Shown here: positions 12,001 to 37,128 of the stretch, piece by piece
Position numbering within the stretch: the stretch's first letter is position 1
Layout of the letters: each line of letters begins with the position of its first letter
Assembly (NCBI GenBank): GCA_963713975.1
Contig: OY970218.1
Span: 3,456,001 to 3,520,000, forward strand
Reading direction: 5' to 3'
DNA length: 64,000 nucleotides
From: an uncultured Chloroflexia bacterium
GTDB taxonomy: Bacteria > Chloroflexota > Limnocylindria > Limnocylindrales > CSP1-4
Translations under genes and position numbers: made by a program
The notes under the pieces: model-generated
Told to the model about the DNA's origin: nothing
The model's input: only the letters and a program-made list of their open reading frames with translations
Database searches by the model: none

Positions 12001-13293
12001 CTAGCCGCGGGTCATCCGCTCCGCGATGTCGGCCCACTCCCAGAGGCGTCGCGGGTCTGACCGGCAGGTACTGATGTCCTTGAGCGTGAACTCGACCGGG
12101 CAGCCGTTGGCCTTCGTGGCCGCCAGCACGTCCCGGAAGTCCTTCACGGCCATCTCGGGCACCCACTCGTCCATCGCGACCATGGCCGGGTTCGGCTTGC
12201 GGCTGAACACGAAGTCGTGCCCGATCGCCTCGGCGCCCTTGTCGAGCTTCGCCCACGGGCTCATGGAGATCTTGCGCACGTTGGGGATCTTGCGGACGGA
12301 GTCGATCCGGTTGTGGAGCGGGTCACAGCAGCCGAAGTACCCGAGTCCGAAGCGCGCATACCAGCGGGCGTAGTACGGCGGCACGAACTCGTCGAACGCA
12401 GCGTCCGACACGGACACGAACAGCTGCGAGCGCCCAACGGTCCAGTTGTCGACGGCTCGGGCCCTGGCCGGGTCGAACCCGGGCTTCGGCAGCTCGGTCG
12501 TCTGGGCACCGGTGCAGTGGATCCGGTCGGCGCCGTAGCCCAGGAGGCCCCTCTCCTCCAGGATGTCGAGCTCCGCCAGGCGGACCTCGGTCAGGCGGTC
12601 CGCGATGGCGTGCAGGTGCTCCGGCCGGTCCACGAAGTCGTACAGGATCGGCTCGGTGCCGCGGTACTGCTCGATGTCGTCCCACAGCGGGAAGGCGAGC
12701 TCGTCGCCGTTGAAGCCGGTCAGGCCCTGCATCCGGACCTCGAGCAGGCCGTGGAGGCACTCGTTCGCCCATGCCTCCTCCCGGGCCGTCGCCGCCTCAT
12801 CCAGGCTGGGCACGAGGACCCGGAGCTTCGCCACGTCCTCGGGGTTCGCGAGCTGGTCCTCGTAATGGTGGCTCTGGACCACGTTGCCGGCGCCCTGATC
12901 GATGGTGTCCTCGGCGATCCGGATCCCCCAGCCGGGCCGGTCGATGACCTTCTTGATGTCGACGTACGGCTCGACCACCATGTCCACGCGCAGGTGGTTC
13001 CAGCGGTACAGCTCGCGACGGAGGCGCGTCTCGAGGTCAAAGGCAAAGGGGTGCGTGGACGTGACGACGAGATCGTCGCCGCCGGGGACGTCGCCGGCCA
13101 GCTCGTGCCAGGGGATCTCGTCGATCATCGCCATGGGCCGCTCGGGCCGGAGCCCGTTGAGCGCCTCCCACTCCCGGATCCGCTCCTGTTGAACGGGCAG
13201 GGCGGCGAGCTCCGCGACCCGGGCAGCCAGCTCGCGGACGGTCCGGACGTCTGCGATGGGCAGGCCCGTGCTGGTCGTGGCGGCGATGTCCAT
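12001..13293 (-). CDS. UroD/MtaA-superfamily TIM-barrel protein, putative substrate:corrinoid methyltransferase
   Basis: C-terminal FDEFVPPYYARW...YFGCCDPLH...RKISMSPWA...FSRKPNP pattern resembles URO-D-like methyltransferases; lies 26 bp downstream of a corrinoid protein gene. Confidence 0.6.
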   Translation of the reverse strand: MDIAATTSTGLPIADVRTVRELAARVAELAALPVQQERIREWEALNGLRPERPMAMIDEIPWHELAGDVPGGDDLVVTSTHPFAFDLETRLRRELYRWNHLRVDMVVEPYVDIKKVIDRPGWGIRIAEDTIDQGAGNVVQSHHYEDQLANPEDVAKLRVLVPSLDEAATAREEAWANECLHGLLEVRMQGLTGFNGDELAFPLWDDIEQYRGTEPILYDFVDRPEHLHAIADRLTEVRLAELDILEERGLLGYGADRIHCTGAQTTELPKPGFDPARARAVDNWTVGRSQLFVSVSDAAFDEFVPPYYARWYARFGLGYFGCCDPLHNRIDSVRKIPNVRKISMSPWAKLDKGAEAIGHDFVFSRKPNPAMVAMDEWVPEMAVKDFRDVLAATKANGCPVEFTLKDISTCRSDPRRLWEWADIAERMTRG

Positions 13294-13319
13294 CTCGAGG
13301 TCCCTCTCTGGATGCCCGG

Positions 13320-13946
13320 CTACGTCGCCAGCAGGCCGCGGGCGAGGTCCACGGCGGAGCCCGCGTCGGGGGCATAGCCGTCGGCACCGATCTGGGCGGC
13401 GAACTCAGGCGTGACCGGGGCGCCACCGATGACCACCCTGGTCGAGAGGTCTGCCGCGCGGACGGCCTCGACCACGGCGCGCATGTTGGGCATGGTCGTG
13501 GTCAGCAGCGCGGACACGCCGATCAGGTGCGCGTCGTGCTCCCGCGCGGCCTCGACGAAGGCGGCCGGGGCCACGTTGACCCCGAGGTCGATGACCTCGA
13601 TCCCGCCGCCCTTCCACATCATGCCCACGAGGTTCTTGCCGATGTCGTGGAGGTCCCCCTCGACGGTGCCCACGACCGCGCGGAACTCGGGCACCACGCC
13701 CGCGGCCGCGAGGACGGGCTCCAGGATCTCGGTGCCGGCCTTCATCGCCCGGGCGGCGATCAGCATCTCCGGGACGTATAGCTCGCCCTCCTGGAACTTG
13801 CGGCCCACCACGTCCATGGCGGCGGTCATGGCGTCGAGCACCGTCTTGGGGTCGGTTCCCTCGTCCAGGGCGGCCTGGGTCAGAGCTGCGGCATCCTTGC
13901 GGTTGCCGGCCTCGACGGCGGCGGTGAGGGCGGTCAGGTCGGCCAT
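13320..13946 (-). CDS. Corrinoid (B12-binding) protein of a methyltransferase system (MtaC/MtbC-like)
   Basis: Cap domain (MDVVGRKFQEGELYVPEMLIAARAM), GDLHDIGKNLV, SALLTTT, IGGAP. Confidence 0.92.
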   Translation of the reverse strand: MADLTALTAAVEAGNRKDAAALTQAALDEGTDPKTVLDAMTAAMDVVGRKFQEGELYVPEMLIAARAMKAGTEILEPVLAAAGVVPEFRAVVGTVEGDLHDIGKNLVGMMWKGGGIEVIDLGVNVAPAAFVEAAREHDAHLIGVSALLTTTMPNMRAVVEAVRAADLSTRVVIGGAPVTPEFAAQIGADGYAPDAGSAVDLARGLLAT

Positions 13947-14022
13947 GGCGGGGATCTCCTCAGGGTGGGGCGGCGGGCGGGGACGGCGGCGGGTGCGCCG
14001 GACGGGGCGCTGGACGGGGGCG

Positions 14023-14889
14023 CTATCCCAGGTGGGACCAGCCCGTGGTGTGGCGCTTGATCTCCTCGAGATTGTGCAGGCTCGACTCCCGGGCCCGCTC
14101 CTCCCAGGCGAACACGCAGACGGTCATGATCCCATCGAACCGCATGTCCCCGAGCGTCGCGAAGAAGGTATCCCAGGGCACCTCGCCCTGGCCGATATCC
14201 AGGTGCTGGTGGACGCGCACGGCGTTGCCGGGCGGGTTGGTGATGTAGCGCAGGCCGGACGATGCCCGGTGGTCGAAACAGTCCGCGACGTGGACCTGGG
14301 TCAGCAGGTCGCCCGCGTAGCGCATGATCCCGGCCATGTCGCCGCCCTGGTGGAAGGTGTGCGGAGCGCAGTACAGGAAGCTCACGTTCGGGGAGTTGAT
14401 GCCCCGGACCATGTCGACCGCCGTGAACCCGTTCTCCACGAAGTCGTCCGGGTGGGGCTCCAGGCGCAGCTGGATCCCCTCCCGCTCGAAGACCGGGAGC
14501 AGCTCCTCCATGGACTTCCAGAACATCGCCTCGGACAGGGAGGCCTTCTCCGGGCGCCCGTTGAACTCGGAGTTCATGACCGGGACGCCCAGCTCCACCG
14601 CGATCTCGATCGCCCGCTTCCAGTAGCGGACCGCGGCCTGTCGCTCGTCCTCGTCCGGCCCGGACCAGCGGAAGAGCGGCAGCAGCGAGCTGACCTGTAC
14701 CCCAGCCCCCGACAGGGCTGCCTTGAACGACCGGATCGTCGCCGTGTCCACGCGCGGGTGCAGGAAGAACGGGATGAAGTCCTCGCGCGGCGACAGCTCG
14801 AGGTACTCGTAGCCCAGGTCGGCGACCAGTCCCGGCAGCTCCACCAGGGGCGTGGTCCGGAACATGTACGGATCGAGCGCGATCTTCAT
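14023..14889 (-). CDS. iolH: Sugar-phosphate isomerase/epimerase family protein, IolH-like
   Basis: MKIALDPYM, ELSPREDFIPFF, EPHPDDF, HQHLDIGQGEV, VCVFAWEE match IolH-family features. Confidence 0.75.
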   Translation of the reverse strand: MKIALDPYMFRTTPLVELPGLVADLGYEYLELSPREDFIPFFLHPRVDTATIRSFKAALSGAGVQVSSLLPLFRWSGPDEDERQAAVRYWKRAIEIAVELGVPVMNSEFNGRPEKASLSEAMFWKSMEELLPVFEREGIQLRLEPHPDDFVENGFTAVDMVRGINSPNVSFLYCAPHTFHQGGDMAGIMRYAGDLLTQVHVADCFDHRASSGLRYITNPPGNAVRVHQHLDIGQGEVPWDTFFATLGDMRFDGIMTVCVFAWEERARESSLHNLEEIKRHTTGWSHLG

Positions 14890-14942
14890 CGTGTCTCCTC
14901 GTGGGCCGCCGGCCCGGGCCGGGACCCGTGGGCCACGGGACG

Positions 14943-15950
14943 CTATCGGTAGAGGTCGGGCTTGGCGATGTAGTCGATGGACATGCGCTCGCCGGTCTTG
15001 ACCGCCTCCACGCCGACCTCCACGACCTTGGTCGCCGCGTAACCCTCCCAGGCGCTGGGCCCCACGCACTCGCCGTCCGCGAGGCCGGTGATCCATGCCT
15101 GAAGCTCCGCCGTGTAGGCCGCGCCAAACCGTGCCCGCCAGTCGGGCGGGATGGTCGTCGCATCGGTGCCGGCGGCGATGGTCGACGAGACCACCGGGTT
15201 GGCCAGGGACGAGGTGCCCAACGAACCGACGAGCTCGCAGCGGACGTCGTAGCCGTACTGGCAGTTGGCGAAGAACTCGACCGTGGACAGGATCCCGGAC
15301 TCCGTGGTGAACACCGCGAACTGCGGGTCCTGGAGGTGCGGGAACGCCTTGGGCGTGCGCTTGGGCGGGATGACCTGGACGGCGGTGATCTCCTCGCCCA
15401 GCAGCCAGCGGCTCGTGTCCACCTCGTGGATCATCGAGTCGGTCATCGTCATGAAGCTGGTGTACGCCTCGCCCACGGTCGCGTTGCGGTGGACGTTGTG
15501 GAGGATCAGCGCGTCGCCGATCGCACCGCTCTCGAGCGACGCCTTGACCGCCCGGTAGCCCGAGTCGTAGCGACGCATGTAGCCGACGATGACGAGCCGC
15601 TTGCCGAAGGCCACCTCGGCCGCCACGATCTGCTCGCACTCGGGAACCGTGGGCGCCAGCGGCTTCTCGCACATGACCGGCTTGCCGGCCGCGATACAGG
15701 CGAGCACGTACTCGGCGTGGGTCGGGCCGATGGAGGTGACGAGGACGGCGTCCACCTCGTCCGAGGCAATCAGGTCCAGGCCGGTATCGAAGACCGCGAC
15801 GCCTCCGAGCTCCGCTGCCACCTCCGCGGCGCGTGCCCGGTTGACGTCGGTCACGGCGCTGACAGTGGAACCGTTGATGACGTTGACGAGCTTGCGGCCG
15901 TGGTCCTCGCCGATGAGCCCGGTGCCGATGATGCCGACCCTGATGGTCAT
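14943..15950 (-). CDS. iolG: Inositol 2-dehydrogenase, Gfo/Idh/MocA family (Bacillus IolG type)
   Basis: GIIGTGLIGEDH, CEKPLA, VGYMRRYD, DSMIHEVD, YGYDVRCE. Confidence 0.8.
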   Translation of the reverse strand: MTIRVGIIGTGLIGEDHGRKLVNVINGSTVSAVTDVNRARAAEVAAELGGVAVFDTGLDLIASDEVDAVLVTSIGPTHAEYVLACIAAGKPVMCEKPLAPTVPECEQIVAAEVAFGKRLVIVGYMRRYDSGYRAVKASLESGAIGDALILHNVHRNATVGEAYTSFMTMTDSMIHEVDTSRWLLGEEITAVQVIPPKRTPKAFPHLQDPQFAVFTTESGILSTVEFFANCQYGYDVRCELVGSLGTSSLANPVVSSTIAAGTDATTIPPDWRARFGAAYTAELQAWITGLADGECVGPSAWEGYAATKVVEVGVEAVKTGERMSIDYIAKPDLYR

Positions 15951-15979
15951 GGTGCGCTCCTCTCTCCCGGTCGTCGGGT

Positions 15980-16909
15980 TCAGCCCAGCGGCCGGCCGGC
16001 CCCCAGGCCACAGGTCTTGAAGTACTGCTGCGTCCGGATGGCGATCGGCAGCGGGCGCTCGAAGTCGCAGGGGTACATGTCCTGCTCCACGATGCAGAAC
16101 AGCTCGCGATCCAGCCCGGCGAGGGCATCGATCAGCGAGGGCATGTCCGGCTCGCCCAGCGGCGGCTCCACCATGGCCCCCAGCCGGACCGCGGGGGCGA
16201 AGCCCATCTTCTCGTCCATCGCGCGGGCGCGGATGGCCGTGTCGACCTGCTTGAGGTGGACGTACTGCACCCGGTCCGGGTAGTCCGCGATGAGCTTGAG
16301 GTTGTCGGCGCCGCAGTAGGCCACGTGCCCCGTGTCCAGGCACAGCTGGACGGTCTCGGGATCGGTGCCATCGAGGAAGCGCTCGATCTGCTCCTGCGTG
16401 CCGACGTGGCTGTCCGCGTGGGTGTGGAACACGAGCACGGCACCGTGCTTGTCCGTGACGTAGCGGCCCAGTGCCGACATGCCGGAGTTGAGGGCGTCCC
16501 ACTCATCGTCGGTGAGCGTGGGGCTCGCGGTCAGGTTGCCGTCGAAGTCCGTGTACCCCTCGGGCAGGATGACCAGGTGCTTCGCGCCGTTGGGCCCGAT
16601 GACCGCCATCTCGGCATCGCAGTCGGCCTTCGCCTGCTCCAGCGCTGCCCGGCCCTTGTGGAGCGCCACGAACACCGTTCCGCCGGTGAGTGTCAGGCCG
16701 CGCTTGGCGTACTCCTCGCGGATGATGCCGGGGTCCGTGGGCAGGTACCCGAAGGGCCCGAGCTCGCTGTACCTGTAGCCCGCGGCCTGGACCTCGTCGA
16801 GGTACCGCTGCCACGGTGTCTGCAGGGGGTCGATGCCAGGGTTCCAGACGCCCCAGGAATCCGGAGCTGTTCCCAGGTGAAGCTGGGGATAGTCGACGGC
16901 GAGGTTCAC
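15980..16909 (-). CDS. iolE: Myo-inosose-2 dehydratase-like TIM barrel (IolE/MocC family)
   Basis: GTAPDSWGVW, ELGPFGYLPTD, FHTHADSHV, LCLDTGH, YVHLKQ, IVEQDMYP. Confidence 0.7.
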   Translation of the reverse strand: MNLAVDYPQLHLGTAPDSWGVWNPGIDPLQTPWQRYLDEVQAAGYRYSELGPFGYLPTDPGIIREEYAKRGLTLTGGTVFVALHKGRAALEQAKADCDAEMAVIGPNGAKHLVILPEGYTDFDGNLTASPTLTDDEWDALNSGMSALGRYVTDKHGAVLVFHTHADSHVGTQEQIERFLDGTDPETVQLCLDTGHVAYCGADNLKLIADYPDRVQYVHLKQVDTAIRARAMDEKMGFAPAVRLGAMVEPPLGEPDMPSLIDALAGLDRELFCIVEQDMYPCDFERPLPIAIRTQQYFKTCGLGAGRPLG

Positions 16910-16972
16910 GACACGGACTCCCTGCGGCTGTACGAGCGGTGTTCACGACGACGGGTGGCTGTTCCCCACTAA

Positions 16973-16986
16973 TGTAATCGATTGCG
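16973..16986. promoter_or_regulatory. LacI-type operator TGTAATCGATTGCG overlapping the promoter of the iolE-iolG-iolH-corrinoid operon
   Basis: CG-centred palindrome repeated at six or more iol promoters in this window. Confidence 0.8.
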
Positions 16987-19939: not shown

Positions 19940-20947
<1,008 letters not shown>

Positions 20948-20961
20948 TGGTCCCTCCTCTC

Positions 20962-22464
20962 TCAGGCCGCCGGGGCGACGAGCGTCGCCGCCTCGAGAAC
21001 CTTCTCCTGGGTCGCCTCGGCGCGACTCAGCTCCGCGGTGATCCTGCCTCCCGCCATCACCAGGATGCGGTCGCTCATTCCGAGGATCTCGGGCATCTCG
21101 GACGAGACCATCAGGATCGCCTTACCCTCTTTCGCCAGGCCGGACATGAGCCGGTGGATCTCGGACTTGGCGCCGACGTCGATCCCACGCGTCGGTTCGT
21201 CGATCATCAGGACGTCGGGCAGCGTCATGAGCCAGCGCGAGACCAGCACCTTCTGCTGGTTGCCACCCGAGAGATTCCTGATCAGCTGCGCGAGCGACGG
21301 CGTCTTGATGGCGAGTGCCTCGCGCTGGCTGGTGCAGGCGGCCTCCATGGCGCTCTTGCGCAGGATCCAGCCGGGGCTGAACCGGTTGAGGTTCGCAATC
21401 GTCATGTTGTCGCGGACCGAGAGCGCGCCCATGATCCCCGTCAGCTTGCGGTCCTCGGTGAGCAGGCCCATCCCGGCCTCGATCGCGTCGGCCGGCGACT
21501 TGATGTCGACGGTCTTGCCGTTGATCACGACCTCGCCGGCGTCCACCTTCGTCACCCCGAAGATCGCCTCGAGCACCTCAGTCCGGCCGGCGCCCATCAG
21601 GCCTGCGAGACCCAGGATCTCGCCCCTGCGCAGGTCGAAGGAGATGTCCTCGATCACGCCGCGGCGGGTGAGGCCGCGCACGCTCATGACCACCTCGCCG
21701 GGCTCCACGTCCTCCTTCGGGAACAGGTGCGTGAGCTCGCGGCCGACCATCAGCGTGATCAGCTTCTGACGATCGAGCTCGGAGGCGGGCAGGGTGGCGA
21801 CGTGCTTCCCGTCGCGGAACACCGTGACGAAGTCCGCGATCTTGAACACCTCGTCCATCTTGTGCGTGATGTAGATGATGGCCACGCCGGTCTCGCGCAG
21901 GGAGCGAATCATCCGGTGGAGGTGGGCCACCTCGCGCTCGGTGATCGCGGAGGTGGGCTCGTCCATGATGATCAGGCGGGCGTCCGTCGAGATCGCCTTG
22001 GCAATCTCGACCATCTGGGTCTGCGCGACGCTCAGCGTCTTCATCACGCGGCCGGGGTCGATGTCGATCTGCCAGCGCTCGAAGACCGCCTTGGCATTGG
22101 CGACCATCGCCCGCTTGTCGACCAGCCTGAACCTGTTGAGCGGCTCACGGCCGAGGAAGATGTTCTCGGCGACGGTCATCGCCGGTACCGGCGACAGCTC
22201 CTGGTGGATCATCGCGATCCCCTGCCCCAGGGCGTGCACGGGGTCCGGGATGTGGACCTCCCGGCCGTTGAGCTCGATCCGCCCGGCATCGGCGTGGTAG
22301 ATGCCCGCGAGCACTTTCATCAGCGTCGACTTGCCCGCACCGTTCTCGCCCATCAGTGCGTGCACCGTGCCCGCCTCGACGTCGAGGTGGACGTCATCGA
22401 GCGCCTGGACGCCGGGGAACGCCTTGGAGATCCCCGTCATCCGGAGGAGAAGCTCGTCACCCAT
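20962..22464 (-). CDS. Sugar ABC transporter ATP-binding protein (RbsA/MglA type, two NBDs)
   Basis: [36 protein letters not shown]; an alternative start lies at 22488. Confidence 0.92.
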
Positions 22465-22539
22465 CCGCTGCCCTCCCGCTGCTCCCATGCGACCGGTCGT
22501 GGGTCTTCCCCGGTGCGGGGCGTGCCCGCCCTGAAAGCA

Positions 22540-22571
22540 GTTCGGAGGCCCAGTGAACCGGGCCTCCGAAC
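22540..22571 (-). terminator. Hairpin between the binding-protein and ATPase genes (mRNA stabiliser or partial terminator)
   Basis: GTTCGGAGGCCC...GGGCCTCCGAAC 12-bp stem. Confidence 0.6.
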
Positions 22572-22620
22572 CGTACCACTCGGGGTGGTGTGTCGGCCGA
22601 CGGAGTCGGCCAGCTAGTTC

Positions 22621-23604
22621 CTAGTTGGCGCCCAGGTAGTCCGCGATGTTCGCGGGCGTCACGAGCACGTAGGGGATGTCCACGTAATCGGGGACGGCCG
22701 TGCCATTGATCAGGTCAACGGCCGCGTCGACGCCGCCCTTGCCCTGGCCCTTTGCATCCTGGAAGACGGTGACCTCGAGATCGCCCGCCTGCATGGCGGC
22801 GAGGGCTTCGGAGGTGGCATCGACGCCGCCGACGAAGACGCTGTCGAGGAGGTTGCCGGCCTTGAGCGCGTTGATCGCGCCAAGTGCCATCTCGTCGTTG
22901 TTCGCACAGACGACCATGCCGGCCTTGAGGGCACCGGACTGGATCCAGTTCTCGGTGATCGACTGGGCCTTCGCGCGGTCCCACTCGCCGGACTGGGTGG
23001 CGACGACCGACATGTCGGGGTTCTTGGCCACGACGTCGTTGCAGCCCTGCGTCCGGAGGACGGCGGCTTCGTTGGAGACCTGACCCTGGAGGATCACGAC
23101 CTCACCCTTGGCGCCCGCGAGCTTGGCGAGCTCTTCCATCTCCACGGTTCCCGCGTAGAGGGAGTCGGAGCCGACGTACGGGACGCCGGCGATTGCCGGG
23201 TTGCGGTTGACGAAGACGATGGGGATGTTCGCGGCCTTGGCGGCGTCCGCCATCGGCTGCGCCGCGCTGGTGTCCACCGGCACGACGAGGATCGCCGAGA
23301 CGCCCTGCGAGACGAAGTTCTCGACCTGGGCGAGCTGCGCGGCCGTGTCGTCCTTGGCGTCGGTGATGGTGATGGCGACGCCCTTCGCCTCTGCCTCGGC
23401 CTTCATGCCGTCCTGGACGCGGCTCAGGAACGTGTCGCTGTTCGGGAACGCGACACCCAGGGTGATGTCGCTCGCCGGGGCCATGCTCTCGGGAGCCATG
23501 CTCTCGGCCGGGGCCGTGGTGGCAGTGCTGCCGCCGCAGGCGCTCAGGATGACGGCGCCGGCGACCATGAGGCCAGCCAACCGTCCCGTGGTCTTGAAGT
23601 CCAT
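22621..23604 (-). CDS. Sugar ABC transporter substrate-binding lipoprotein (inositol/rhizopine-binding type)
   Basis: AGGA RBS, lipobox LSAC, motifs VPVD, VNR, RTQG, NNDEMALGA, GVDA, TVFQDA. Confidence 0.88.
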   Translation of the reverse strand: MDFKTTGRLAGLMVAGAVILSACGGSTATTAPAESMAPESMAPASDITLGVAFPNSDTFLSRVQDGMKAEAEAKGVAITITDAKDDTAAQLAQVENFVSQGVSAILVVPVDTSAAQPMADAAKAANIPIVFVNRNPAIAGVPYVGSDSLYAGTVEMEELAKLAGAKGEVVILQGQVSNEAAVLRTQGCNDVVAKNPDMSVVATQSGEWDRAKAQSITENWIQSGALKAGMVVCANNDEMALGAINALKAGNLLDSVFVGGVDATSEALAAMQAGDLEVTVFQDAKGQGKGGVDAAVDLINGTAVPDYVDIPYVLVTPANIADYLGAN

Positions 23605-23703: not shown

Positions 23704-23746
23704 CGTAATCGATTGCAAGGTAGCGACTGCGAGCGGGCCCGTCAAC
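23704..23746 (-). promoter_or_regulatory. Sigma70-like promoter (TTGACG-17-TACCTT) with an abutting LacI operator CGTAATCGATTGCA at 23704-23717
   Basis: Minus-strand -35/-10 with a 17-bp spacer immediately followed by the palindrome. Confidence 0.75.
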
Positions 23747-23870: not shown

Positions 23871-23889
23871 TAGGATGTAATCGGTTACC
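23871..23889 (+). promoter_or_regulatory. -10 TAGGAT plus LacI operator TGTAATCGGTTACC upstream of the second iolG
   Basis: Near-consensus palindrome directly after a TAnnnT hexamer. Confidence 0.7.
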
Positions 23890-23966: not shown

Positions 23967-24965
23967 ATGCTTCGCGTAGCACTCCTCGGGGCCGGCCGCA
24001 TCGGCCAGGTCCACGCACGCTCCATCATCGAGAGCGGCGAGGCCGAGCTCACCTGGGTCTGTGACCCCGTCGACACCGCCGCCAGCGCCCTCGCCGGCCG
24101 GTACGGCGCCCGGTGGAGCCCCGAACCAGGCGACGCGATCGCCGACCCGAACGTCGACGCGGTCCTGATCGCCTCGGCGACCCCGACCCATACCGACCTG
24201 ATGCGCGAGTCGGTGCTGGCCGGCAAGAAGGTCCTGTGCGAGAAGCCGATCGACCTCGACATTGCCAGGATCGATGCGACCTGGGCCGCGATCAAGGACC
24301 ACGCACCGTTCGTGATGCTCGGGTTCAACCGCCGCTTCGACCCCACCTTCGGCGAGATCAAGGCACGGGTCACGGCGGGCGAGATCGGGCCCATCCGGGC
24401 CCTGCGCGTGACGAGCCGGGATCCGCAGCCGCCGCCCGCGGCCTACCTGTCCGTGTCGGGTGGCATGTTCCGCGACATGACGATCCACGACTTCGACATG
24501 GCCCGCTTCTTCCTGGGTGAGATCGTGGAAGTCTCGGCCGTCGCCAGCCACAACAACGACCCTGTCTTTGTCGAAGCCGGGGACCATGCCCAGGCCATGG
24601 TCACGATGCGCAACCGTGACAACGCGCTGTGCACGATCGTCAACAGCCGCATCTGTGCCTACGGCTACGACCAGCGGCTCGAGGCGTTCGGCGACCTGGG
24701 CTCGCTCGAGGCGGGCAACATGACGGCGACCACGGTCCGGGCGAGCAGTGCAACCACCACCGGGGCGGGCGGGCCCGTCCTCAACTTCTTCCTCGAGCGC
24801 TACGTGCCGGCCTACCGGGCTGAGTTCGCGGAGTTCGTCGCCGCGATCAAGGAGGACCGTGAGCCGTCGGTGGGCTTCGCCGACGGCCGGGCGGCCCTGG
24901 TCCTCGCGGAGGCGGCCGTCGAGAGCGTGGCCACCGGCAGGGTCGTGAGCGTCACGGGCGGCTGA
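23967..24965 (+). CDS. iolG: Myo-inositol 2-dehydrogenase (IdhA/IolG type)
   Basis: AGGAGG RBS; LLGAGRIGQVHA, CEKPID, GFNRRFDP, TSRDP, GGMFRDMTIHDFD, YGYDQRLEAFG. Confidence 0.85.
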   Translation: MLRVALLGAGRIGQVHARSIIESGEAELTWVCDPVDTAASALAGRYGARWSPEPGDAIADPNVDAVLIASATPTHTDLMRESVLAGKKVLCEKPIDLDIARIDATWAAIKDHAPFVMLGFNRRFDPTFGEIKARVTAGEIGPIRALRVTSRDPQPPPAAYLSVSGGMFRDMTIHDFDMARFFLGEIVEVSAVASHNNDPVFVEAGDHAQAMVTMRNRDNALCTIVNSRICAYGYDQRLEAFGDLGSLEAGNMTATTVRASSATTTGAGGPVLNFFLERYVPAYRAEFAEFVAAIKEDREPSVGFADGRAALVLAEAAVESVATGRVVSVTGG

Positions 24966-24999: not shown

Positions 25000-25881
25000 T
25001 CAGCTCCTCGCGGCTGCCGCCAGGAGCGCCTCGAGGTACACGCGGTTCGCGCGGGCCGTCGCCGTGGGGTCGGGTGCGGTGTCCTGCTCGATCACGTACC
25101 AGGCGTCGTAGCCGACGCCGTGCAGCGCGCGCACCACCTCCGGGATCCGGGCGATCCCCTCGCCGAGCGGCGGGAAGATGTAGTGCTCGAGCGCCTTGCC
25201 GAAGCTCCAGCTCTCGGCCTTCGCACGGCCGAGGATCGCGCCGTCCACATCCTTGACATGGACGTGCTTCACGCGGTCCGCGTACCGGGGCAGCAGCTCC
25301 ATGGCATCACCGCCGCCGAACGCCAGGTGCCCGATGTCGAGGCACCAGCCCACGAGCGCCGGATCGGTCTCGTCCAGGAGCCGGGTGGTCTCCGCGGGCG
25401 TCTCGACATAGGTGCCGACATGATTGTGGAACACGAGCTCCATGCCCATCGGCTCGATACGCCGAGCCAGCTCCTCCAGGCCGCGGGCGAGGTTGCGCCA
25501 TTGCTCGTCGGAGAGGCCGCGGGATTCGTCCACATGCCCCGCCTCGCCGCGCCGTCGCTCGTCGCCGGCCTCGGCGGCGATCAGCCGGGTACCTCCGTTG
25601 ACCGCGAGGAACCGGGCGATCCCGAGCGCCCGCTCGATCTCGCTCTCCAGCTTGTCCGCATCGCGGAAGCCCAGCCCCACGAACGCGCCGACGAGGTCCA
25701 GGCCGCGCGCCTGGAGGTCCACTCGCAGGACCTCGGGATCTGTCGGCATCGACGGGCCCCACTCGGTGGCGTCATAGCCCGCCTCGACGAAGTGGTCCAT
25801 CGCCTCGCCGTACGGAATCCACGGGAAGACATCAGGGATGTCGGGGCTGTTCCAGTTGACGATGGCGGTCGCGATCCTCAC
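25000..25881 (-). CDS. iolE: IolE-like inosose dehydratase / TIM-barrel protein
   Basis: GTG start overlaps the iolD stop (GTGA); FHNHVGTYVE, CLDIGH, HVHVKD, LGEG, VIEQD. Confidence 0.7.
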   Translation of the reverse strand: MRIATAIVNWNSPDIPDVFPWIPYGEAMDHFVEAGYDATEWGPSMPTDPEVLRVDLQARGLDLVGAFVGLGFRDADKLESEIERALGIARFLAVNGGTRLIAAEAGDERRRGEAGHVDESRGLSDEQWRNLARGLEELARRIEPMGMELVFHNHVGTYVETPAETTRLLDETDPALVGWCLDIGHLAFGGGDAMELLPRYADRVKHVHVKDVDGAILGRAKAESWSFGKALEHYIFPPLGEGIARIPEVVRALHGVGYDAWYVIEQDTAPDPTATARANRVYLEALLAAAARS

Positions 25882-27764
25882 AGGAGCTCCCTCCGCTGGC
25901 TCTCCACCGCCGTCTCGTAGCGCTCGCGCGCCTCGGTGACGGTGTCCCTGGCACTGACCTCCGCGGGCGGCACGTCCCACCATCCCTCGTAGCCGGGAGC
26001 CCGCTTGTCCGGCGAGACGGCGACATGGATGACGGTGATCCGATCGGCTCCACGGGCCGCTGCCAGCGCGGCCCGGATCTCCTCCTCGGTCCGGGCGTAG
26101 AACGCGAGCGCGCCCATGGCCTCGGCATGCTTCTTGAAGTCGACCGGCACGTAGCCGCCGGTCAGCCGGTTGCGCTCGGGGTCCCGGAACCGCAGTTCGT
26201 TGCCGAACTGCGCGATGCCGACGCTTGCCGCGAGGTCCTTGATGCACTGGTAGCCGTGGTTGTCGAAGACGACGACCGTGATCCGGATGCCCTCCGCGAC
26301 CGCGGTCACGATCTCCGAGTTGAGCATCAGGTAGGTGCCGTCGCCGATTGCGACCACCACCTCGCGCTCCGGCTCGGCGAGCTTGACTCCGAGACCGGCC
26401 GGGATCTCGTAGCCCATGCAGGAGTAGCCGTACTCGAGGTGGTACGCCTTGGAGTCCTCGGGCCGCCACAGCTTGAGCAGGTCGCCCGGGAGGCTGCCGG
26501 CGGCACACACGACCGTGGCATGACCGCCGACGGCGTCGTTCACGATCCCGATGACCTCGGGCTGGGCCAGCTCCTCCGTCTCGCCGTTGGGCGTGCGGTG
26601 GTAGTCGACGCGCGCATCCCACTCGGCCTTGAGGTCGGCGATCCGCTGCCGGTACTCGGGCGAGGTGCCCAGGTGTCCGGCCTCGGCCAGCCCGCTCGCG
26701 ATGGCGGCCAGCGCCTCGCGCGCATCCGCGACGACCGGGACGGAGCGCAGCTTGGCCGCGTCGAAGCCGTTCACGTTGATCCCGACGAATTTGGCGTTCG
26801 GGTCCTGGAACTGGGTCTTGGAGGCCGTGACGAAGTCGCCCAGCCGCGTGCCGACCGCGATCACCAGATCCGCCTCGCGGGCCAGCCGGTTGGCCGCCAG
26901 GCCACCTGCCGCGCCGATCGGACCGGCGTTGAGGGCATGGTTCCAGGGCAGGACGCCCTTGCCGGCCTGCGACTCCGTGACCGGGATCCCGAAGCGGGTG
27001 GCCAGGTCGTCGAGCACCGCCTCGGCACCCGAGTAGATCGCCCCGCCGCCGGCGATGATGATCGGCCGCTTGGCCGACCGGATCAGGTCCACCACCTCCG
27101 CCACGACCTCACCATCCGGGCGGGGCCGGCGGACGCGCCAGACGCGGCGCTCGAAGAAGCGCTCCGGCCACTCGTAGACCTCGGACTGCACGTCCTCCGG
27201 CAGGGAGATCGTGACGGCGCCGGTCTCGGCCGGGTCGGTGAGGACCCGGAAGGCTTCGGGAAGGCTGGACAGCAGCTGCTCGGGGCGGGAGATCCGGTCG
27301 AAGTAGCGGGAGACCGGGCGGAAGGCGTCCGATGCGGAGACGTCGCGCTCCACCGGGTGCTCGACCTGCTGGAGCACCGGATCCGGCAGGCGGTTGGCGA
27401 AGTAGTCGCTCGGAAACAGCAGGACGGGCAGCCGGTTGATCGTGGCGCCCGCGGCGCCCGTGATCATGTTGGTGGCGCCCGGGCCGATGGACGACATGCA
27501 GGCGAACGTCTGGAGCCGGTTCTTGTGCTTCGCGTACGCCGCCGCCAGGTGCACCTGCGCCTGCTCGTTCTGCGGCCGGTAGTACGGCATCGCGCACTCG
27601 TCGCCCAGCTCCTCGAGGGCCTGCCCAAGGCCGGCCACGTTGCCATGCCCGAAGATCCCCCACACGCCCGCGATGAAGCGGGTCTGTTCGCCGTCGCGCT
27701 CGATGTACTGCTCCGCAAGGAAGCGGACGATGGCCTGCCCCACCGTCAGCCGGACCGTGCTCAA
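25878..27764 (-). CDS. iolD: 3D-(3,5/4)-trihydroxycyclohexane-1,2-dione acylhydrolase (ThDP-dependent)
   Basis: TTG start after GGAGAGGAG; GIFGHGNVAGLGQAL, SIGPGATNM, PDPVLQQ, AAGSLPGDL, YHLEYGYSCMGYEI, GDGTYLM. Confidence 0.95.
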   Translation of the reverse strand: MSTVRLTVGQAIVRFLAEQYIERDGEQTRFIAGVWGIFGHGNVAGLGQALEELGDECAMPYYRPQNEQAQVHLAAAYAKHKNRLQTFACMSSIGPGATNMITGAAGATINRLPVLLFPSDYFANRLPDPVLQQVEHPVERDVSASDAFRPVSRYFDRISRPEQLLSSLPEAFRVLTDPAETGAVTISLPEDVQSEVYEWPERFFERRVWRVRRPRPDGEVVAEVVDLIRSAKRPIIIAGGGAIYSGAEAVLDDLATRFGIPVTESQAGKGVLPWNHALNAGPIGAAGGLAANRLAREADLVIAVGTRLGDFVTASKTQFQDPNAKFVGINVNGFDAAKLRSVPVVADAREALAAIASGLAEAGHLGTSPEYRQRIADLKAEWDARVDYHRTPNGETEELAQPEVIGIVNDAVGGHATVVCAAGSLPGDLLKLWRPEDSKAYHLEYGYSCMGYEIPAGLGVKLAEPEREVVVAIGDGTYLMLNSEIVTAVAEGIRITVVVFDNHGYQCIKDLAASVGIAQFGNELRFRDPERNRLTGGYVPVDFKKHAEAMGALAFYARTEEEIRAALAAARGADRITVIHVAVSPDKRAPGYEGWWDVPPAEVSARDTVTEARERYETAVESQRRELL

Positions 27765-27834
27765 GTGAACGCTCCTCTCCACTGGCAGGGCTCCCGGAGC
27801 GTGCTGCTCCCGCCGTGCCGCCCGCGCACCGTGG

Positions 27835-27877
27835 TGCAATCGATTACAAGTGTAGCGTCCCGGGCGCCTCGGTCAAC
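27835..27877 (-). promoter_or_regulatory. iolD promoter (TTGACC-16-TACACT) with LacI operator TGCAATCGATTACA at 27835-27848
   Basis: Palindrome directly downstream of the minus-strand -10. Confidence 0.78.
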
Positions 27878-28513: not shown

Positions 28514-28534
28514 TAGGCTGAGAAATCGATTACG
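28514..28534 (+). promoter_or_regulatory. -10 TAGGCT plus operator AGAAATCGATTACG (autoregulation of the LacI gene)
   Basis: Same palindrome family and same position relative to -10. Confidence 0.7.
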
Positions 28535-28655
28535 CGTACTCAGCGCGTGGTCCACCGTCAGGCCAGGCCAGCTGGAGGCAGAGGCAGATGGAGGCAGGTC
28601 CGAACCGCGTCGCCGCAGCCTCAGACGGGATCGCCCTCCCCGCGTGGTGCCGGTG

Positions 28656-29693
28656 ATGGAGCGAGCCGTCCCGGCCACGATCAGCGATGTCGCCCACCGG
28701 GCGGGCGTGAGCACCGCCACCGTGAGCCGGGTCCTGGCGGGCATCGGCAATCCCAAGCCCGACACGGCGGCCGCGGTGCTGGCCGCGGTGGGCGAGCTGG
28801 GCTACCGTCCCTCGGGTGTTGCGCGATCGCTCCGTATGCGGCGGACACGCACCCTGGGGCTGATCGTCACCGACATCCAGAACCCCTTCTTCCCGGAGCT
28901 CGTGCAGGCCGCAGACCTCGCCGCCCGCAGCCTCGACTACTCGATCATCCTGGGCAGCGCCGCCTACGACGAGCATCGCGCGATGCACTACCTGGACCTG
29001 ATGGTGGACCGTCGCGTGGATGGCCTGATCATCGCCTCGAGCCAGCTGTCCGACGAGAGCTGGCAGTGGCTGGCCCGCTCACCCGTACCGGTGGTCGTCG
29101 TAAACGCGGAGCCTACCGGCGTACCCGTGTCCGTGATCACCAGCGACAACGCGGGCGGCACCCGGATCGCCGTCGAGCACCTGGTCGGCCTGGGCCATCG
29201 CAGGATCGCCTACATCCGCGGCTACGAGGGATTCACGGCCGACGTGCCCCGCGTCGAAGGGTACCGGCAGGCTTGCGCCGCGGCGGGCATCCCGGCTGCG
29301 GACATGGTGGAGATCCGGGGCGACGGACAGTTCGAGGGCGGCGAGAGCGCCATGGCGGAGCTGCTCGCGAGGGGCTCGGACGTGACCGCAGTGATGTGCC
29401 ACAACGACGTGACCGCGATCGGGGCTATGCGCGCCCTGCGGTCGGCCCAACGCCGTGTGCCGGCGGAGGTCAGCGTCCTGGGCTGCGACGACATCGCCGC
29501 CGCATCCTGGGTCGTGCCCGCGCTGACGACGGTTGCCCAGCAGAAGGCGGAGATGGGCCGGATGGCGGTGGAGCGGATGGCCGCCGCGCTCGACGACCCG
29601 GACGCGCTTGCACCGGCGGAGACGACCCGGATCCCCATGGTGCTCCAGGTCCGAGAATCCACGGGGCCCGCCCCGGCTGCCGGAGCGACCTGA
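28656..29693 (+). CDS. LacI/GalR family transcriptional regulator (probable iol regulon repressor)
   Basis: ATISDVAHRAGVSTATVSRVL HTH, ARSL hinge, NPFF, CHNDVTAIG, SVLGCDD, PALTTV. Confidence 0.92.
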   Translation: MERAVPATISDVAHRAGVSTATVSRVLAGIGNPKPDTAAAVLAAVGELGYRPSGVARSLRMRRTRTLGLIVTDIQNPFFPELVQAADLAARSLDYSIILGSAAYDEHRAMHYLDLMVDRRVDGLIIASSQLSDESWQWLARSPVPVVVVNAEPTGVPVSVITSDNAGGTRIAVEHLVGLGHRRIAYIRGYEGFTADVPRVEGYRQACAAAGIPAADMVEIRGDGQFEGGESAMAELLARGSDVTAVMCHNDVTAIGAMRALRSAQRRVPAEVSVLGCDDIAAASWVVPALTTVAQQKAEMGRMAVERMAAALDDPDALAPAETTRIPMVLQVRESTGPAPAAGAT

Positions 29694-29821
29694 TCGTGAC
29701 CAAGGTGCCGGAGGTGCCCCTCGCGTTCCCGTGGCCTCCGTTCGGCCCACGGTACTGAGCCAATCGGCGTCCCATCCCTGTGCCCGGACGGGGCACCGAT
29801 CGCGACGTGGAGAGCAACCAC

Positions 29822-30721
29822 ATGATCCGCATTGCCAACGCCCCCTGTTCCTGGGGCGTCATCGAGAACGTTGCCGGCGAGACCGGTGGGTATCGCCAGG
29901 TCCTCGACGAGATGGCCGAGACAGGGTACGCCGGCACCGAGCTGGGCGACTGGGGCTTCATGCCCACCGACCCTGGGGCGCTGCAGGCCGAGATCGACTC
30001 CAGGGGCCTCGCCATGCTGGCGTCGTTCGCGACGCCCTGGCTCCAGGACCCTGCGCGCCACCGCCAGGGCGAGGAGGACGCGGTCCGGATCGGGAAGCTC
30101 CTGGCGGCGGTGGGCGGCCCTGACACCATGATCGTTGTGGGCAACGACCCGTACGGCGACCTGGTGCGCGGCCAGAACGCAGGCCGGATCACACCGGAGA
30201 TGGGCCTCTCTGACGACGGATGGGAGACCTATGCGGCCGCCGCGAACCGCCTGGCGAAGCGGGTCAAGGAGGAGGCCGGCGTGCGGACCGTCGTCCACCA
30301 GCACCTCGGCACGCTGATCGAGACCGGCGCCGAGCTCCGTCGGCTGATGGACATGACCGACCCGGACCTGCTCGGGATCTGCCTCGACACCGGCCACTGG
30401 ACGTTCGGGACGGGCGAGAGCCCCGTCGACGCCGTTCGGGAGTTCGGCGACCGGATCTGGCACGTCCACTTCAAGGACTGCGACCCGGCCGTCATGGCGG
30501 AGTCGCGTGCAAAGAAGTGGGACGGCCTGACCTCCACCGGCCACGGCGTGTTCTGCGAGCTGGGCAAGGGCTGCGTGGACTTCCCCGGCGTCCTCGCCGC
30601 GCTCGAGGAGACCGGCTACGACGGCTGGATCGTCGTGGAACAGGACATCCTGCCGGGGATGGGCAACCCTCGCGAGAGCGCTCGGCGCAATCGCGAGTAC
30701 CTCCGCTCCATCGGCGCCTGA
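29822..30721 (+). CDS. IolE/MocC-like TIM-barrel inosose dehydratase
   Basis: IANAPCSWG, TELGDWGFMPTDP, HQHLGT, CLDTGH, HVHFKD, ELGKG, VVEQD. Confidence 0.7.
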   Translation: MIRIANAPCSWGVIENVAGETGGYRQVLDEMAETGYAGTELGDWGFMPTDPGALQAEIDSRGLAMLASFATPWLQDPARHRQGEEDAVRIGKLLAAVGGPDTMIVVGNDPYGDLVRGQNAGRITPEMGLSDDGWETYAAAANRLAKRVKEEAGVRTVVHQHLGTLIETGAELRRLMDMTDPDLLGICLDTGHWTFGTGESPVDAVREFGDRIWHVHFKDCDPAVMAESRAKKWDGLTSTGHGVFCELGKGCVDFPGVLAALEETGYDGWIVVEQDILPGMGNPRESARRNREYLRSIGA

Positions 30722-33191: not shown

Positions 33192-34718
33192 CTAGCTGTT
33201 GCCGGGGAAGACGAGGCTCAGCGGCCCCTGCTTGCCGGGCTCCGGCCAGCGCTCGGTGACCATCTTCTGCTGGGTGAAGAAGCGGACGCCGTCCTCACCG
33301 CGCATGGCGAGGTCGCCGATCGCGGACTCCTTGGAGCCCGAGAAGCTCATGTAGCCCGCGGGCACCGGGATCGGCACGTTGACGCCGATCATCGGGACCT
33401 CGACCTCGAGCTTGAAGCGCCGCGCGGCGCCGCCGTCGGTCGTGAACACCGCCGTGCCGTTGGCGTACTTGTGGTCGTTGATGAGCTTCAGGCCCTCGTC
33501 GAAGGTGTCCGTGTGCACGATGCCGAAGACGGGGCCGAAGATCTCCTCCTGGTAGATCTTCATGTCCGGGGTGACGTTGTCGAACAGCGTGACGCCCAGG
33601 AAGAACCCGTCCGGGTTGGGCCCGACGAACGTACGGCCGTCCACGAGGAGCTCGGCGCCCTCGGCCTCGCCGACGTTGATCCAGTTGATCACCGACTGGC
33701 GGTGCTCATCCGTGTAGATGGGGCCCATGTCGACGCCCGGCTCCATGCCGTCGCCGATCTTGAGCCGTGCGATCCGCTCCATGATCTTGGGCTTGAGGCG
33801 CTCGGCGGTGTCACCCACCGCGACCATCAGCGTCTGGGCCATGCAGCGCTCGCCGGCCGAGCCGAAGCCCGCCGCGACCGCCGCGTCCGCGACCAGGTCC
33901 ATGTCCGCGTCGGGCAGGACGAGCATCGCATTCTTGGCGCTGGTGTAGGACCCGACGCGCTTGCCGCGCTTGGTGCCCTCCTCGTAGACGTAGCGGCCGA
34001 CGGCCGTCGAGCCCACGAACTGGATCGCCTTGATGCCCTTGTGCTCGACGATCGCCTTGACCGCCTCGCGGCCGCCGTAGACGACGTTGAACGTGCCGTC
34101 GGGTCCGCCCGCCTGCGTCCACAGCTCGGCCTGGAGCTGCGTCGCACCCGGCGTGTGGGAGGACGGCTTGAGGATCACCGTATTGCCGCACATCAGTGCG
34201 ATCGGGTAGATCCACGTGGGGACCATGACCGGGAAGTTGAAGGGCGCGATCGCCGCGACGACGCCAAGCGGCTGACGCAGCGTGAACGCGTCGACCTTGG
34301 TCGACACGTTGGGCGTCATCATGCCGGAGAGGTGAACCGGCAGGCCGCACGCGAAGTCGATCGTCTCAATGCCGCGGAGGACCTCGGCGAGGGCATCCGG
34401 GAAGGTCTTGCCGTGGTCGCGCGTGATGAGCGCGGCGAGGTCCTCGCGGTGCTGGTACATCAGGTTGCGGAACTGGAAGAAGATGTTCGAGCGCGCGATC
34501 AACGGCATGTCGCGCCAGGCGGGGAATGCAGCCTGGGCCGCCTCGACCGCGGCGTCAACCTCGGCCACTCCGCCGCGCGGGACCCGGGCGAACACCTGGC
34601 CCGTCGCCGGGTTGGTGATGGGGCCTGTGTTCTCGGCCAAGACCTCGACGGCCGTGCCGTTGATGTAGTGGGACAGGATCGGCAAGACCGCCGTCTGCTC
34701 CCGGGTCTCGATCGCCAT
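33192..34718 (-). CDS. iolA: CoA-acylating (methyl)malonate-semialdehyde dehydrogenase
   Basis: APFNFPVMVP, FVGST, AKN, AGFGSAGERCMA, EEIFGPV, GVNVPIPVP. Confidence 0.9.
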   Translation of the reverse strand: MAIETREQTAVLPILSHYINGTAVEVLAENTGPITNPATGQVFARVPRGGVAEVDAAVEAAQAAFPAWRDMPLIARSNIFFQFRNLMYQHREDLAALITRDHGKTFPDALAEVLRGIETIDFACGLPVHLSGMMTPNVSTKVDAFTLRQPLGVVAAIAPFNFPVMVPTWIYPIALMCGNTVILKPSSHTPGATQLQAELWTQAGGPDGTFNVVYGGREAVKAIVEHKGIKAIQFVGSTAVGRYVYEEGTKRGKRVGSYTSAKNAMLVLPDADMDLVADAAVAAGFGSAGERCMAQTLMVAVGDTAERLKPKIMERIARLKIGDGMEPGVDMGPIYTDEHRQSVINWINVGEAEGAELLVDGRTFVGPNPDGFFLGVTLFDNVTPDMKIYQEEIFGPVFGIVHTDTFDEGLKLINDHKYANGTAVFTTDGGAARRFKLEVEVPMIGVNVPIPVPAGYMSFSGSKESAIGDLAMRGEDGVRFFTQQKMVTERWPEPGKQGPLSLVFPGNS

Positions 34719-34765
34719 GTGTGCTACTCCTCCGCGGAAACTGGTGCTGGACGCCGTGGTTGATC

Positions 34766-35866: not shown

Positions 35867-35991
35867 AGGTTCTCCGTTGCCTGGGAGTGGGCGGGCGCAC
35901 CGACCGTCACTATAATCGATGATCGTTGATCTTTTCGCAAGGAGCGCCGCGTCCCGGCCACGCAGGTCGCGGCGCACCGCACGCCCGCATC

Positions 35992-37035: not shown

Positions 37036-37049
37036 GGCAATCGATTACA
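37036..37049. promoter_or_regulatory. LacI operator GGCAATCGATTACA upstream of iolB
   Basis: Consensus palindrome abutting a minus-strand CACCAT hexamer. Confidence 0.75.
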
Positions 37050-37128
37050 TGGTGCAATCTTGGCCTACCGGGACGGCATCGTCAAGCACCTCCGGCGGGG
37101 AACGGCGCGGCTGGGGCGGGGGGCACGC

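Follow-up and report, generated by a model that had tools for sequence, protein, structure and literature searches.

How might a bacterium remove the methyl group of an O-methyl-inositol, and what is a corrinoid protein doing among inositol genes? Both questions are raised by an operon in a 64,000-nucleotide stretch of DNA from an uncultured, soil-type Chloroflexota bacterium (positions 3,456,001-3,520,000 of a single-contig 3.62-Mb genome; the whole stretch is referred to here as the window). The window has 70% G+C, and its relatives are Chloroflexota metagenome-assembled genomes labelled Chloroflexia or Limnocylindrales, on the strength of which the actinobacterial source that so high a G+C content might suggest was rejected. 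In the operon, a corrinoid protein and an unnamed protein of 430 amino acids (aa) are encoded together with three proteins of inositol-catabolic type. As discussed below, the pair is likely to be a corrinoid methyltransferase system, and its regulatory link to the inositol (iol) genes is the firmest result of the analysis. The best reading of the operon, held tentatively, is that of a putative B12-dependent demethylase of methyl-cyclitols, with D-pinitol or a relative as the most plausible substrate. Methyl-inositols are proposed because the pair lies under the iol operator and because its partners in the operon are paralogs of enzymes of the D-chiro-inositol branch.

A five-gene operon in the inositol regulon

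The operon is made up of five co-directional genes on the minus strand, given here in operon order after the operator that precedes them.

16974..16985, no strand assigned: LacI-type operator GCAATCGATTAC, a near-palindromic 12-mer upstream of the operon that overlaps a TTGACG hexamer resembling a -35 element
15980..16909, minus: IolE-like inosose dehydratase paralog, 309 aa, a xylose-isomerase-like TIM barrel (AP_endonuc_2 PF01261, 1.1e-16)
14943..15950, minus: B. subtilis-type IolG paralog, 335 aa, GFO/IDH/MocA family, like myo-inositol 2-dehydrogenase / D-chiro-inositol dehydrogenase (PDB 3mz0)
14023..14889, minus: TIM barrel like sugar or inosose isomerases/epimerases, 288 aa (AP_endonuc_2 PF01261, 1.5e-47)
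13320..13946, minus: methyltransferase-type corrinoid protein, 208 aa (B12-binding PF02310, 3.9e-28; B12-binding_2 PF02607, 3.6e-19)
12001..13293, minus: 430-aa member of a large unnamed family, with a UroD/MtaA fold by structure and profile comparison; candidate substrate-side methyltransferase (MT1)

The genes of the window come from a gene call based on G+C content at third codon positions, combined with Pfam scans, and 42 gene calls were scanned in this way. In the operon, the intergenic gaps are 29, 53, 76 and 26 bp in order, and every one of the five starts is preceded by a ribosome-binding site of the GGAG/GAGG type. Scans of 11600-17200 for consensus promoters and terminators returned no sites. 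The operator itself was found by reading the promoter region and then by a pattern search; an inverted-repeat search had not picked it up. There are four exact copies of GCAATCGATTAC in the whole genome, all at iol promoters of the window, and the reversed pattern, used as a control, gave none. Exact and near copies together all lie in iol intergenic regions. The remaining copies, and the gene for the protein that is likely to read them, are the following.

23705..23716, no strand assigned: exact copy in the promoter of an ATP-binding cassette (ABC) transporter, upstream of the binding-protein gene
23877..23888, no strand assigned: near copy before iolG
27836..27847, no strand assigned: exact copy at the iolD and IolE-like genes
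28522..28533, no strand assigned: near copy before the LacI gene
37037..37048, no strand assigned: exact copy upstream of iolB
28644..29693, plus: LacI-family regulator, the likely reader and binder of the 12-mer

The operator is also kept in relatives. The motif was found in 10 of the 127 loci that were compared, all of the same Chloroflexota clade, and in eight (L001, L002, L005, L008, L009, L010, L013 and L018) it precedes the IolE-like gene. Two of these, L013 and L018, carry an extra copy directly before the corrinoid gene.

The five products can be assigned with varying precision. For the IolE-like protein, PDB 3cny (IolE) is matched at 1.2e-20, and TIGR04379 gives 141 bits, under the equivalog cut-off of 290. 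The IolG paralog matches B. subtilis IolG (3mz0) over its full length with an E value of 1e-91; its best model is that of the bifunctional myo-/D-chiro-inositol IolG (NF052679, 366.6 bits; cut-off 540), and its score against TIGR04380 is 200.6 bits, below the cut-off of 355. The named matches of the TIM barrel are all weak, namely an IolO-like model (35 bits), TM_0416 (4e-5) and IolI (E 0.22). In the corrinoid protein, the DxHxxG motif reads DLHDIG; the protein scores 173 bits against an MtgC-like model and 157 bits against TIGR02370, each below its own cut-off, and matches PDB 1y80 at 3.8e-52. With 26 bp between the last two genes, a cognate two-domain carrier is encoded directly beside the candidate methyltransferase.

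Much of this had been described in a first-pass annotation of the DNA: five co-directional genes with gaps under 80 bp, a LacI operator shared with the other iol genes, and a corrinoid protein with DxHxxG were all found again. Its IolE-like and IolG-type labels are borne out by 3cny and 3mz0, but the label IolH for the TIM barrel is not. It had also assigned the extra paralogs to inositol stereoisomers, with which an operon dehydrogenase of the myo-/D-chiro-inositol type agrees.

Fold and conserved residues of the 430-aa protein

Searches with the 430-aa protein gave no Pfam match even at E 10, PF01208 included, none in NCBIfam and, by phmmer, none in the PDB. When a profile of 92 family members was compared with the PDB, UroD appeared only at E 1.6-2 and S100-A9 at E 0.2, values that amount to noise or a bare hint. 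The family is large, with at least 2,418 matches in a clustered protein collection, all unnamed or called 'hypothetical', and at least 1,799 representatives at 50% identity (E<=0.001). A precomputed Pfam domain was present in none of the 120 homologs listed; the Atlas clusters of one homolog (P0078) bear the automatic name 'URO-D domain-containing' and have no Pfam domain in common. As judged from sequence, the family is too divergent to belong to PF01208.

The UroD fold that the first-pass annotation had given the protein, which is not visible from the sequence, is nevertheless upheld by structure prediction and profile comparison. An AlphaFold (AF2) model built on the 92-member alignment has a predicted local distance difference test score (pLDDT) of 96.3 and a predicted template modeling score (pTM) of 0.93. 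With this model, Foldseek returned 26 matches at E<=1e-3, all of them UroD or the Methanosarcina mazei corrinoid methyltransferase MtaA (4ay7/4ay8); the best TM-scores were those of MtaA, and MetE came next after the UroD/MtaA group. VIA-align, which is independent of Foldseek, gave Z scores of 17.8 (1j93), 17.2 (4exq), 16.9 (4ay7, MtaA) and 16.2 (2eja), the MtaA superposition having a root-mean-square deviation of 3.9 over 281 residues. The next folds were MetE-like chains (Z 11.4) and generic TIM barrels (at most 10.6). Finally, hhalign against seven URO-D-family proteins, five from the same genome and two from L015, gave 97.6% and E 2.7e-12, with the alignment confined to the C-terminal half. 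By its predicted fold, the protein is a member of the UroD superfamily.

In the alignment of 92 full-length members, the near-invariant residues are E88, D104, W284, Q290, C322-C323-E324, K366-P-N-P, E401, K405 and T409, and each residue of the Cys-Cys-Glu cluster is conserved in at least 90% of the rows. In the hhalign alignment, C323 falls on the Cys of the HxC motif of URO-D proteins ('LMHSCG'), and the position of the His is taken by G321. According to excerpts of a study of this superfamily (PMC10418091), S-methyltransferases of the UroD type have a His-Cys-Cys zinc site in which a Cys is replaced by a carboxylate in O-methyltransferases. In the 430-aa protein, the Cys-Cys-Glu cluster is probably the seat of a metal by which the ether oxygen is activated.

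Links of the family to corrinoid machinery

In 15 of 21 genome loci, the gene for the 430-aa protein has a corrinoid gene no more than 4 kb away. All five genes stand in identical order in seven of the 21 (L001, L002, L005, L008, L009, L010 and L013), and partial versions of the cluster occur in L011, L016, L017 and L018. The pair is also found in two other iol settings: in L004 it comes after a sugar ABC transporter and borders on iolB, TAL and iolA, and in L020 it is preceded by iolG and a TIM barrel.

Similar links recur at a greater distance. At a paralog locus, L012 (69% identity), the corrinoid protein and the family member are encoded with an AraC regulator and a MeTr-like pterin-binding protein, the gene of which is two genes from the pair. 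Directly upstream of these genes are P450-like open reading frames and a ferredoxin-reductase-like gene (Fer2 and NAD_binding_1; L012:3970-7277), and a formate/nitrite transporter gene follows; an oxygenase system and a B12 system may thus stand side by side at this locus. In a metagenome contig (L105, 39% identity), the gene for the family member is accompanied by two small open reading frames, a corrinoid protein, a full-length URO-D protein and the activator RACo. An island in a genome of another Chloroflexota family (G032) encodes an S-methyltransferase, RACo, two URO-D proteins, two members of the 430-aa family, an aldo-keto reductase, a corrinoid protein and two further URO-D proteins. 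In this island (L127; G032:C7:32000-50000), the S-methyltransferase is like homocysteine S-methyltransferases, and a pyruvate:ferredoxin oxidoreductase is encoded too. A quick IQ-TREE tree of 94 rows places the clade of the window (12 rows, 10 with a corrinoid neighbor) apart from L104 and L105, and by its well-supported branches the corrinoid-adjacency label must have changed three times or more; rows in which the family match covered no more than 330 profile positions were omitted, among them L006, L013 and L016-L020.

The association can also be followed at the level of whole genomes. Of 301 Chloroflexota genomes sampled, eight, spread across six families, contain the 430-aa family, and 103 contain RACo. 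RACo is encoded by all eight family-positive genomes and by 95 of the 293 others (32%; one-sided Fisher 1.6e-4, with relatives that are not independent of each other). Furthermore, stand-alone corrinoid proteins 48-56% identical to the carrier of the window, typically encoded in a hub, are present in each of the 10 other family-positive genomes that were examined. In G304, G025 and G159, a carrier gene is 1-7 kb from RACo; in G002, RACo and a carrier form a hub with a full-length URO-D protein and DUF1638, and in G001 they lie next to a PocR-AraC regulator. PocR domains fused to AraC or GAF-SpoIIE regulators were also seen beside a gene of the family (L109) and beside hub corrinoid proteins (L125, L126), and such regulators may be a shared regulatory theme.

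Partners for the pair were sought in its own genome. The first-pass annotation had seen neither a MeTr nor a reductive activator in the window and had looked to the rest of the genome for them; there is indeed none among the 42 gene calls, and a MeTr-like protein and RACo are encoded 1.5 Mb away. They belong to a hub at ~1,935,700-1,946,400 (G000:C1; L043) that also holds three MttB-family genes, a corrinoid protein, an MTHFR-like protein and DUF1638. The RACo, the only one in the genome, has Fer2, Raco_middle and RACo_C_ter domains (225 bits). The MeTr-like Pterin_bind protein, at ~1.9445 Mb, scores 70 bits against PF00809, above the cut-off, and 182 bits against PRK07535, below the cut-off of 259; we infer that it may serve the window pair as the methyltransferase that unloads the carrier (MT2). 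The genome also encodes MetH, and its URO-D-family matches number 10, several of which adjoin genes for other corrinoid proteins.

The corrinoid protein was also considered as a subfamily dedicated to the 430-aa family, and this was rejected, as its identity to hub carriers is just as high (47-54%). As far as sequence goes, its likeness to them is not specific, since it is 54% identical to the carrier of its own genome's MttB module.

A proposed route for methyl-inositols

From these elements a route can be proposed. The five genes would form one operon of a LacI-controlled inositol regulon that enables the use of O-methyl-inositols. The 430-aa protein would be a very divergent MT1 of the UroD superfamily that moves the ether methyl group onto the Co(I) of the adjoining corrinoid protein, with the ether oxygen probably activated by a metal in the Cys-Cys-Glu cluster. 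The MeTr-like pterin-binding enzyme would transfer the methyl group of the resulting methyl-Co(III) protein to tetrahydrofolate, and the RACo activator would keep the corrinoid protein reduced, both enzymes being supplied by the distant hub. The freed cyclitol could then be oxidized by the B. subtilis-type IolG paralog, isomerized by the TIM barrel and dehydrated by the IolE paralog, and its product would enter the canonical IolD/B/A route. In an alternative order, oxidation would come before demethylation.

The first-pass annotation had called this demethylation oxygen-independent. That description suits the proposed chemistry; the host encodes a heme-copper oxidase, so it applies to the chemistry and not to the organism.

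A wider proposal, which is doubtful but possible, is that the 430-aa family is a large, unrecognized branch of the UroD superfamily composed of B12-dependent O-demethylases for methylated carbohydrates and cyclitols, encoded as substrate-specific satellites that would dock on a single hub per genome, made up of a shared corrinoid protein, RACo and MT2. Its members would act on pinitol-type methyl-inositols here and on methylated fucose or other sugars elsewhere, in aerobes and anaerobes alike.

Contrary evidence and alternative explanations

Several observations weigh against the demethylase reading. The IolG and IolE paralogs of the operon both fall under the NCBIfam equivalog cut-offs, and the 430-aa protein, in which the site reads G-C-C-E, lacks the His that UroD-type methyltransferases have in their His-Cys-Cys zinc motif. 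We know of no precedent for the corrinoid-dependent cleavage of an alkyl, non-aryl methyl ether, and a search of the open-access literature and bioRxiv returned no paper in which methyl-inositols or methyl sugars are demethylated by a corrinoid-dependent enzyme. Gene neighborhoods add to this. Three loci with proteins 80-82% identical to the 430-aa protein (L003, L006 and L007) have no adjoining corrinoid gene, and ~19 copies in five Chloroflexota genomes (G066, G159, G204, G304 and G025) include none within 70 kb of one. For this last reason, the corrinoid link outside the clade of the window rests on action in trans. Outside this clade, moreover, the family is not found beside iol genes, and among 80 diverse metagenome loci, with members 35-54% identical to the window protein, a corrinoid gene is present in the flank of only two. 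Neighbors within two genes of a family member comprised 209 open reading frames, of which 202 were scanned together, five in a separate scan, and two are paralogs of the family; a B12-binding domain was found in none of the 202.

What does adjoin the family in these metagenome loci is mostly carbohydrate catabolism: alpha-L-fucosidases (L044, L089, L103, L118), fucose isomerase, sulfatases, glycoside hydrolases (GH2, GH3, GH28, GH38, GH39), melibiase and DUF2961, together with GDSL esterases, AraC and PocR-AraC regulators and sugar transporters. GFO oxidoreductases lie within two genes at seven loci, and URO-D paralogs adjoin the family at 10 (15 of the 80 when phmmer was applied to the whole flank). 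The same kind of neighbors is seen at distant genome loci (L014, L015, L021). The first-pass annotation had said that homologs not tied to iol genes would refute its reading, and in the wider family they are indeed not so tied; the tie holds only in one Chloroflexota clade. In general, the usual layout looks like one corrinoid hub with satellites of the family scattered over catabolic loci, as would be expected of substrate-specific MT1s that share a carrier.

These same neighborhoods invite the explanation that the 430-aa protein is not a methyltransferase at all. It could be an enzyme with the UroD fold that acts in carbohydrate or cyclitol metabolism and catalyzes, for instance, the decarboxylation or isomerization of a keto intermediate, and the corrinoid protein would then serve in B12 binding or sensing. 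In its favor, no corrinoid gene is near 78 of the 80 diverse homologs, decarboxylases and MetE are built on the UroD fold as well, the His of the zinc motif is missing and the family is covered by no Pfam or NCBIfam model. Nevertheless, this explanation is unlikely. It would leave unaccounted for the presence of RACo in all family-positive genomes of the sample, as opposed to 32% of the others, and the repeated links to corrinoid proteins, RACo, URO-D and MeTr in distant lineages (L012, L105, G032). The protein encoded 26 bp away is, in addition, a two-domain carrier of the methyltransferase type, close to 1y80.

If the pair is a genuine corrinoid system, it could still act on another substrate, such as another methylated sugar or a small methyl donor imported along with inositols, or run in the methylating direction, its co-regulation with iol genes being a peculiarity of the local clade. 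The fucosidases, fucose isomerase, sulfatases and GH2/3/28/38/39 enzymes beside the wider family, where iol genes are not found, point this way, as does L012, which has P450-like open reading frames, AraC, a MeTr-like gene and a formate/nitrite transporter and no iol genes. This is rather unlikely, since the operator is exclusive to iol promoters in the genome, its position is kept in eight relatives, and the pair is embedded among iol paralogs in three arrangements (the window type, L004 and L020).

A last alternative concerns the loss of the methyl group without B12. Excerpts of a study of Erwinia (PMC9788770) describe D-pinitol as 3-O-methyl-D-chiro-inositol and report that its use requires iolT, iolG and iolE, that mutants of a vanB-type demethylase are unaffected, and that no demethylase for pinitol was found. 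Because only these three genes are needed and vanB-type mutants are unaffected, the step of methyl removal stands unassigned in those excerpts. Since three iol genes suffice there, a corrinoid-free route may exist, in which oxidation is followed by elimination of methanol by an IolE-type enzyme, and the operon paralogs could carry it out, which is a further point against a corrinoid demethylase. In the window, the IolG paralog would oxidize the methyl-inositol and the IolE-like protein or the TIM barrel would eliminate methanol from the methyl-inosose so formed, the corrinoid pair only salvaging the one-carbon unit as a methanol:corrinoid methyltransferase, functionally analogous to MtaB/MtaC, and handing it on to tetrahydrofolate. 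The operon has its own copies of all three proteins, and GFO oxidoreductases recur beside the wider family, as noted above. The near-invariant Cys-Cys-Glu cluster, moreover, resembles the Glu-Cys-Cys zinc site of MtaB. This alternative as a whole is quite improbable, as the fold is that of UroD/MtaA and could not be tied to MtaB, free methanol would diffuse off, and satellites in many different carbohydrate loci suggest substrate-specific enzymes and not a single methanol enzyme.

Other genes of the window

The inositol regulon around the operon comprises the following further genes.

19940..23604, minus: sugar ABC transporter (permease, ATPase and binding protein) of the same regulon
23967..24965, plus: canonical iolG, myo-inositol 2-dehydrogenase (TIGR04380, 383 bits, above the cut-off of 355)
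25000..25881, minus: IolE-like gene
25878..27782, minus: iolD, an enzyme dependent on thiamine pyrophosphate
29807..30721, strand not given: further IolE-like gene
33192..36774, minus: iolA (aldehyde dehydrogenase), TAL/FSA-like aldolase and iolB

The two IolE-like paralogs listed here reach 200 and 190 bits against TIGR04379 (cut-off 290). The genes iolA, iolB, iolD, iolE and iolG are all present; a PfkB-type kinase (iolC) was seen in none of the scanned gene calls, and the expected place of the aldolase is occupied by the TAL/FSA-like protein (34766-35866). Upstream of iolB lies an intergenic stretch of ~790 bp (36774-37565), which carries the operator copy at 37037 and, at 37128-37197, overlapping GC-rich repeats with a unit like GGCATCGGGCGGCCGCCGGGC.

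Two large genes flank the operon. The next gene downstream, convergent with it (9331-11649, plus), encodes a 772-aa protein without a Pfam match, homologs of which (50-59% identity) adjoin the cluster in L009, L016, L017 and L018. On the other side, a divergent gene (17126-19912, plus) encodes a 928-aa protein that combines an adenylate/guanylate cyclase domain with a STAND/AAA ATPase and TPR repeats; the operator sits in the intergenic region that it shares with the operon. Farther away, at 55990-59587 (minus), two large neighboring proteins of 656 and 541 aa have no Pfam match at E<=1e-5.

Significance

In legumes, pines and many plants under stress, methylated cyclitols such as pinitol, ononitol and quebrachitol make up major pools of soluble carbon. 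For the removal of methyl groups from cyclitols by bacteria, for which no demethylase was found in the study of PMC9788770, the locus offers a concrete candidate for which partners can be named and the operator is defined. If the demethylase reading is true, oxygen-independent chemistry would take place inside a respiring organism.

The consequences of the family-wide proposal would be broader. If it is true, a very large family of 'hypothetical proteins' in carbohydrate loci of Chloroflexota, Bacillota, Planctomycetota and others would gain a function, and the range of corrinoid methyl transfer, which covers aryl ethers, amines, thiols and methanol, would come to include aliphatic sugar ethers. 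A missing bacterial route for the aliphatic methyl ethers of plant and algal sugars would thereby be supplied, with the methyl group saved as methyl-tetrahydrofolate, and the availability of B12 would be tied to the turnover of plant carbon in soils and guts. The new elements would be an MT1 family that had gone unrecognized and a probable substrate class not seen before; three-component corrinoid methyl transfer is already known.

Comparison with known systems

The closest logic is that of the O-demethylases of aryl methyl ethers in acetogens and Desulfitobacterium (Odm/Vdm, MtvABC), which likewise consist of an MT1, a corrinoid protein, an MT2 and an activating enzyme. OdmB and VdmB are named as O-demethylases of the UroD superfamily in the excerpts of PMC10418091. 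The proposed system is like Odm/Vdm in having an MT1 in this superfamily and a carrier with DxHxxG, and in leaving methyl-tetrahydrofolate formation and ATP-dependent reductive reactivation to separate proteins. The substrates of Odm/Vdm, by contrast, are phenyl methyl ethers, whereas the context here is the catabolism of cyclitols and carbohydrates. The window system also differs in that its putative MT1 has no PF01208 match and shows G-C-C-E at the place of HxC, in that its MT2 and activator would be encoded 1.5 Mb away, and in the terminal oxidase of its host.

The methylcobamide:coenzyme M methyltransferases of the MtaA/MtbA type (4ay7/4ay8) and the bacterial MtaA-like proteins (Mlps) have the same fold as that predicted for the 430-aa protein, and they too work with small corrinoid proteins and with activators of the RACo/RamA type. 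MtaA-type enzymes, however, unload methyl-Co(III) onto thiols by means of a His-Cys-Cys zinc site, as stated in excerpts of PMC10418091, and the His of this site is absent from the 430-aa protein, the genomic role of which looks substrate-side (MT1).

In the MttB-superfamily systems for quaternary amines (MtgB/MtgC/MtgA type), the MT1 belongs to another family, that of the MTTB TIM barrel, and the methyl group is removed from nitrogen and not from oxygen. A module of this type is present in the same genome, its carrier being the one that is 54% identical to the window corrinoid protein, and it probably lends its MT2 and activator to the window pair.

The other three genes of the operon recall the D-chiro-inositol branch of B. 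subtilis (IolG, IolI, IolE), as a dehydrogenase of the myo-/D-chiro type, a TIM barrel like an isomerase and an IolE-like protein are encoded together. All three window proteins, however, score below equivalog cut-offs, and the TIM barrel is not recognizably IolI (E 0.22). To our knowledge, the B. subtilis iol operon does not contain a corrinoid pair.

Finally, methylated cyclitols and sugars are also demethylated by oxygenases, such as MocDEF for rhizopine and a cytochrome P450 for 6-O-methyl-galactose, which depend on O2 and release formaldehyde. The task is the same in both cases, as an O-methyl group has to be removed to open the carbon skeleton to standard catabolism. In contrast to the oxygenase routes, the one proposed here would keep the methyl group on tetrahydrofolate and would need no oxygen.

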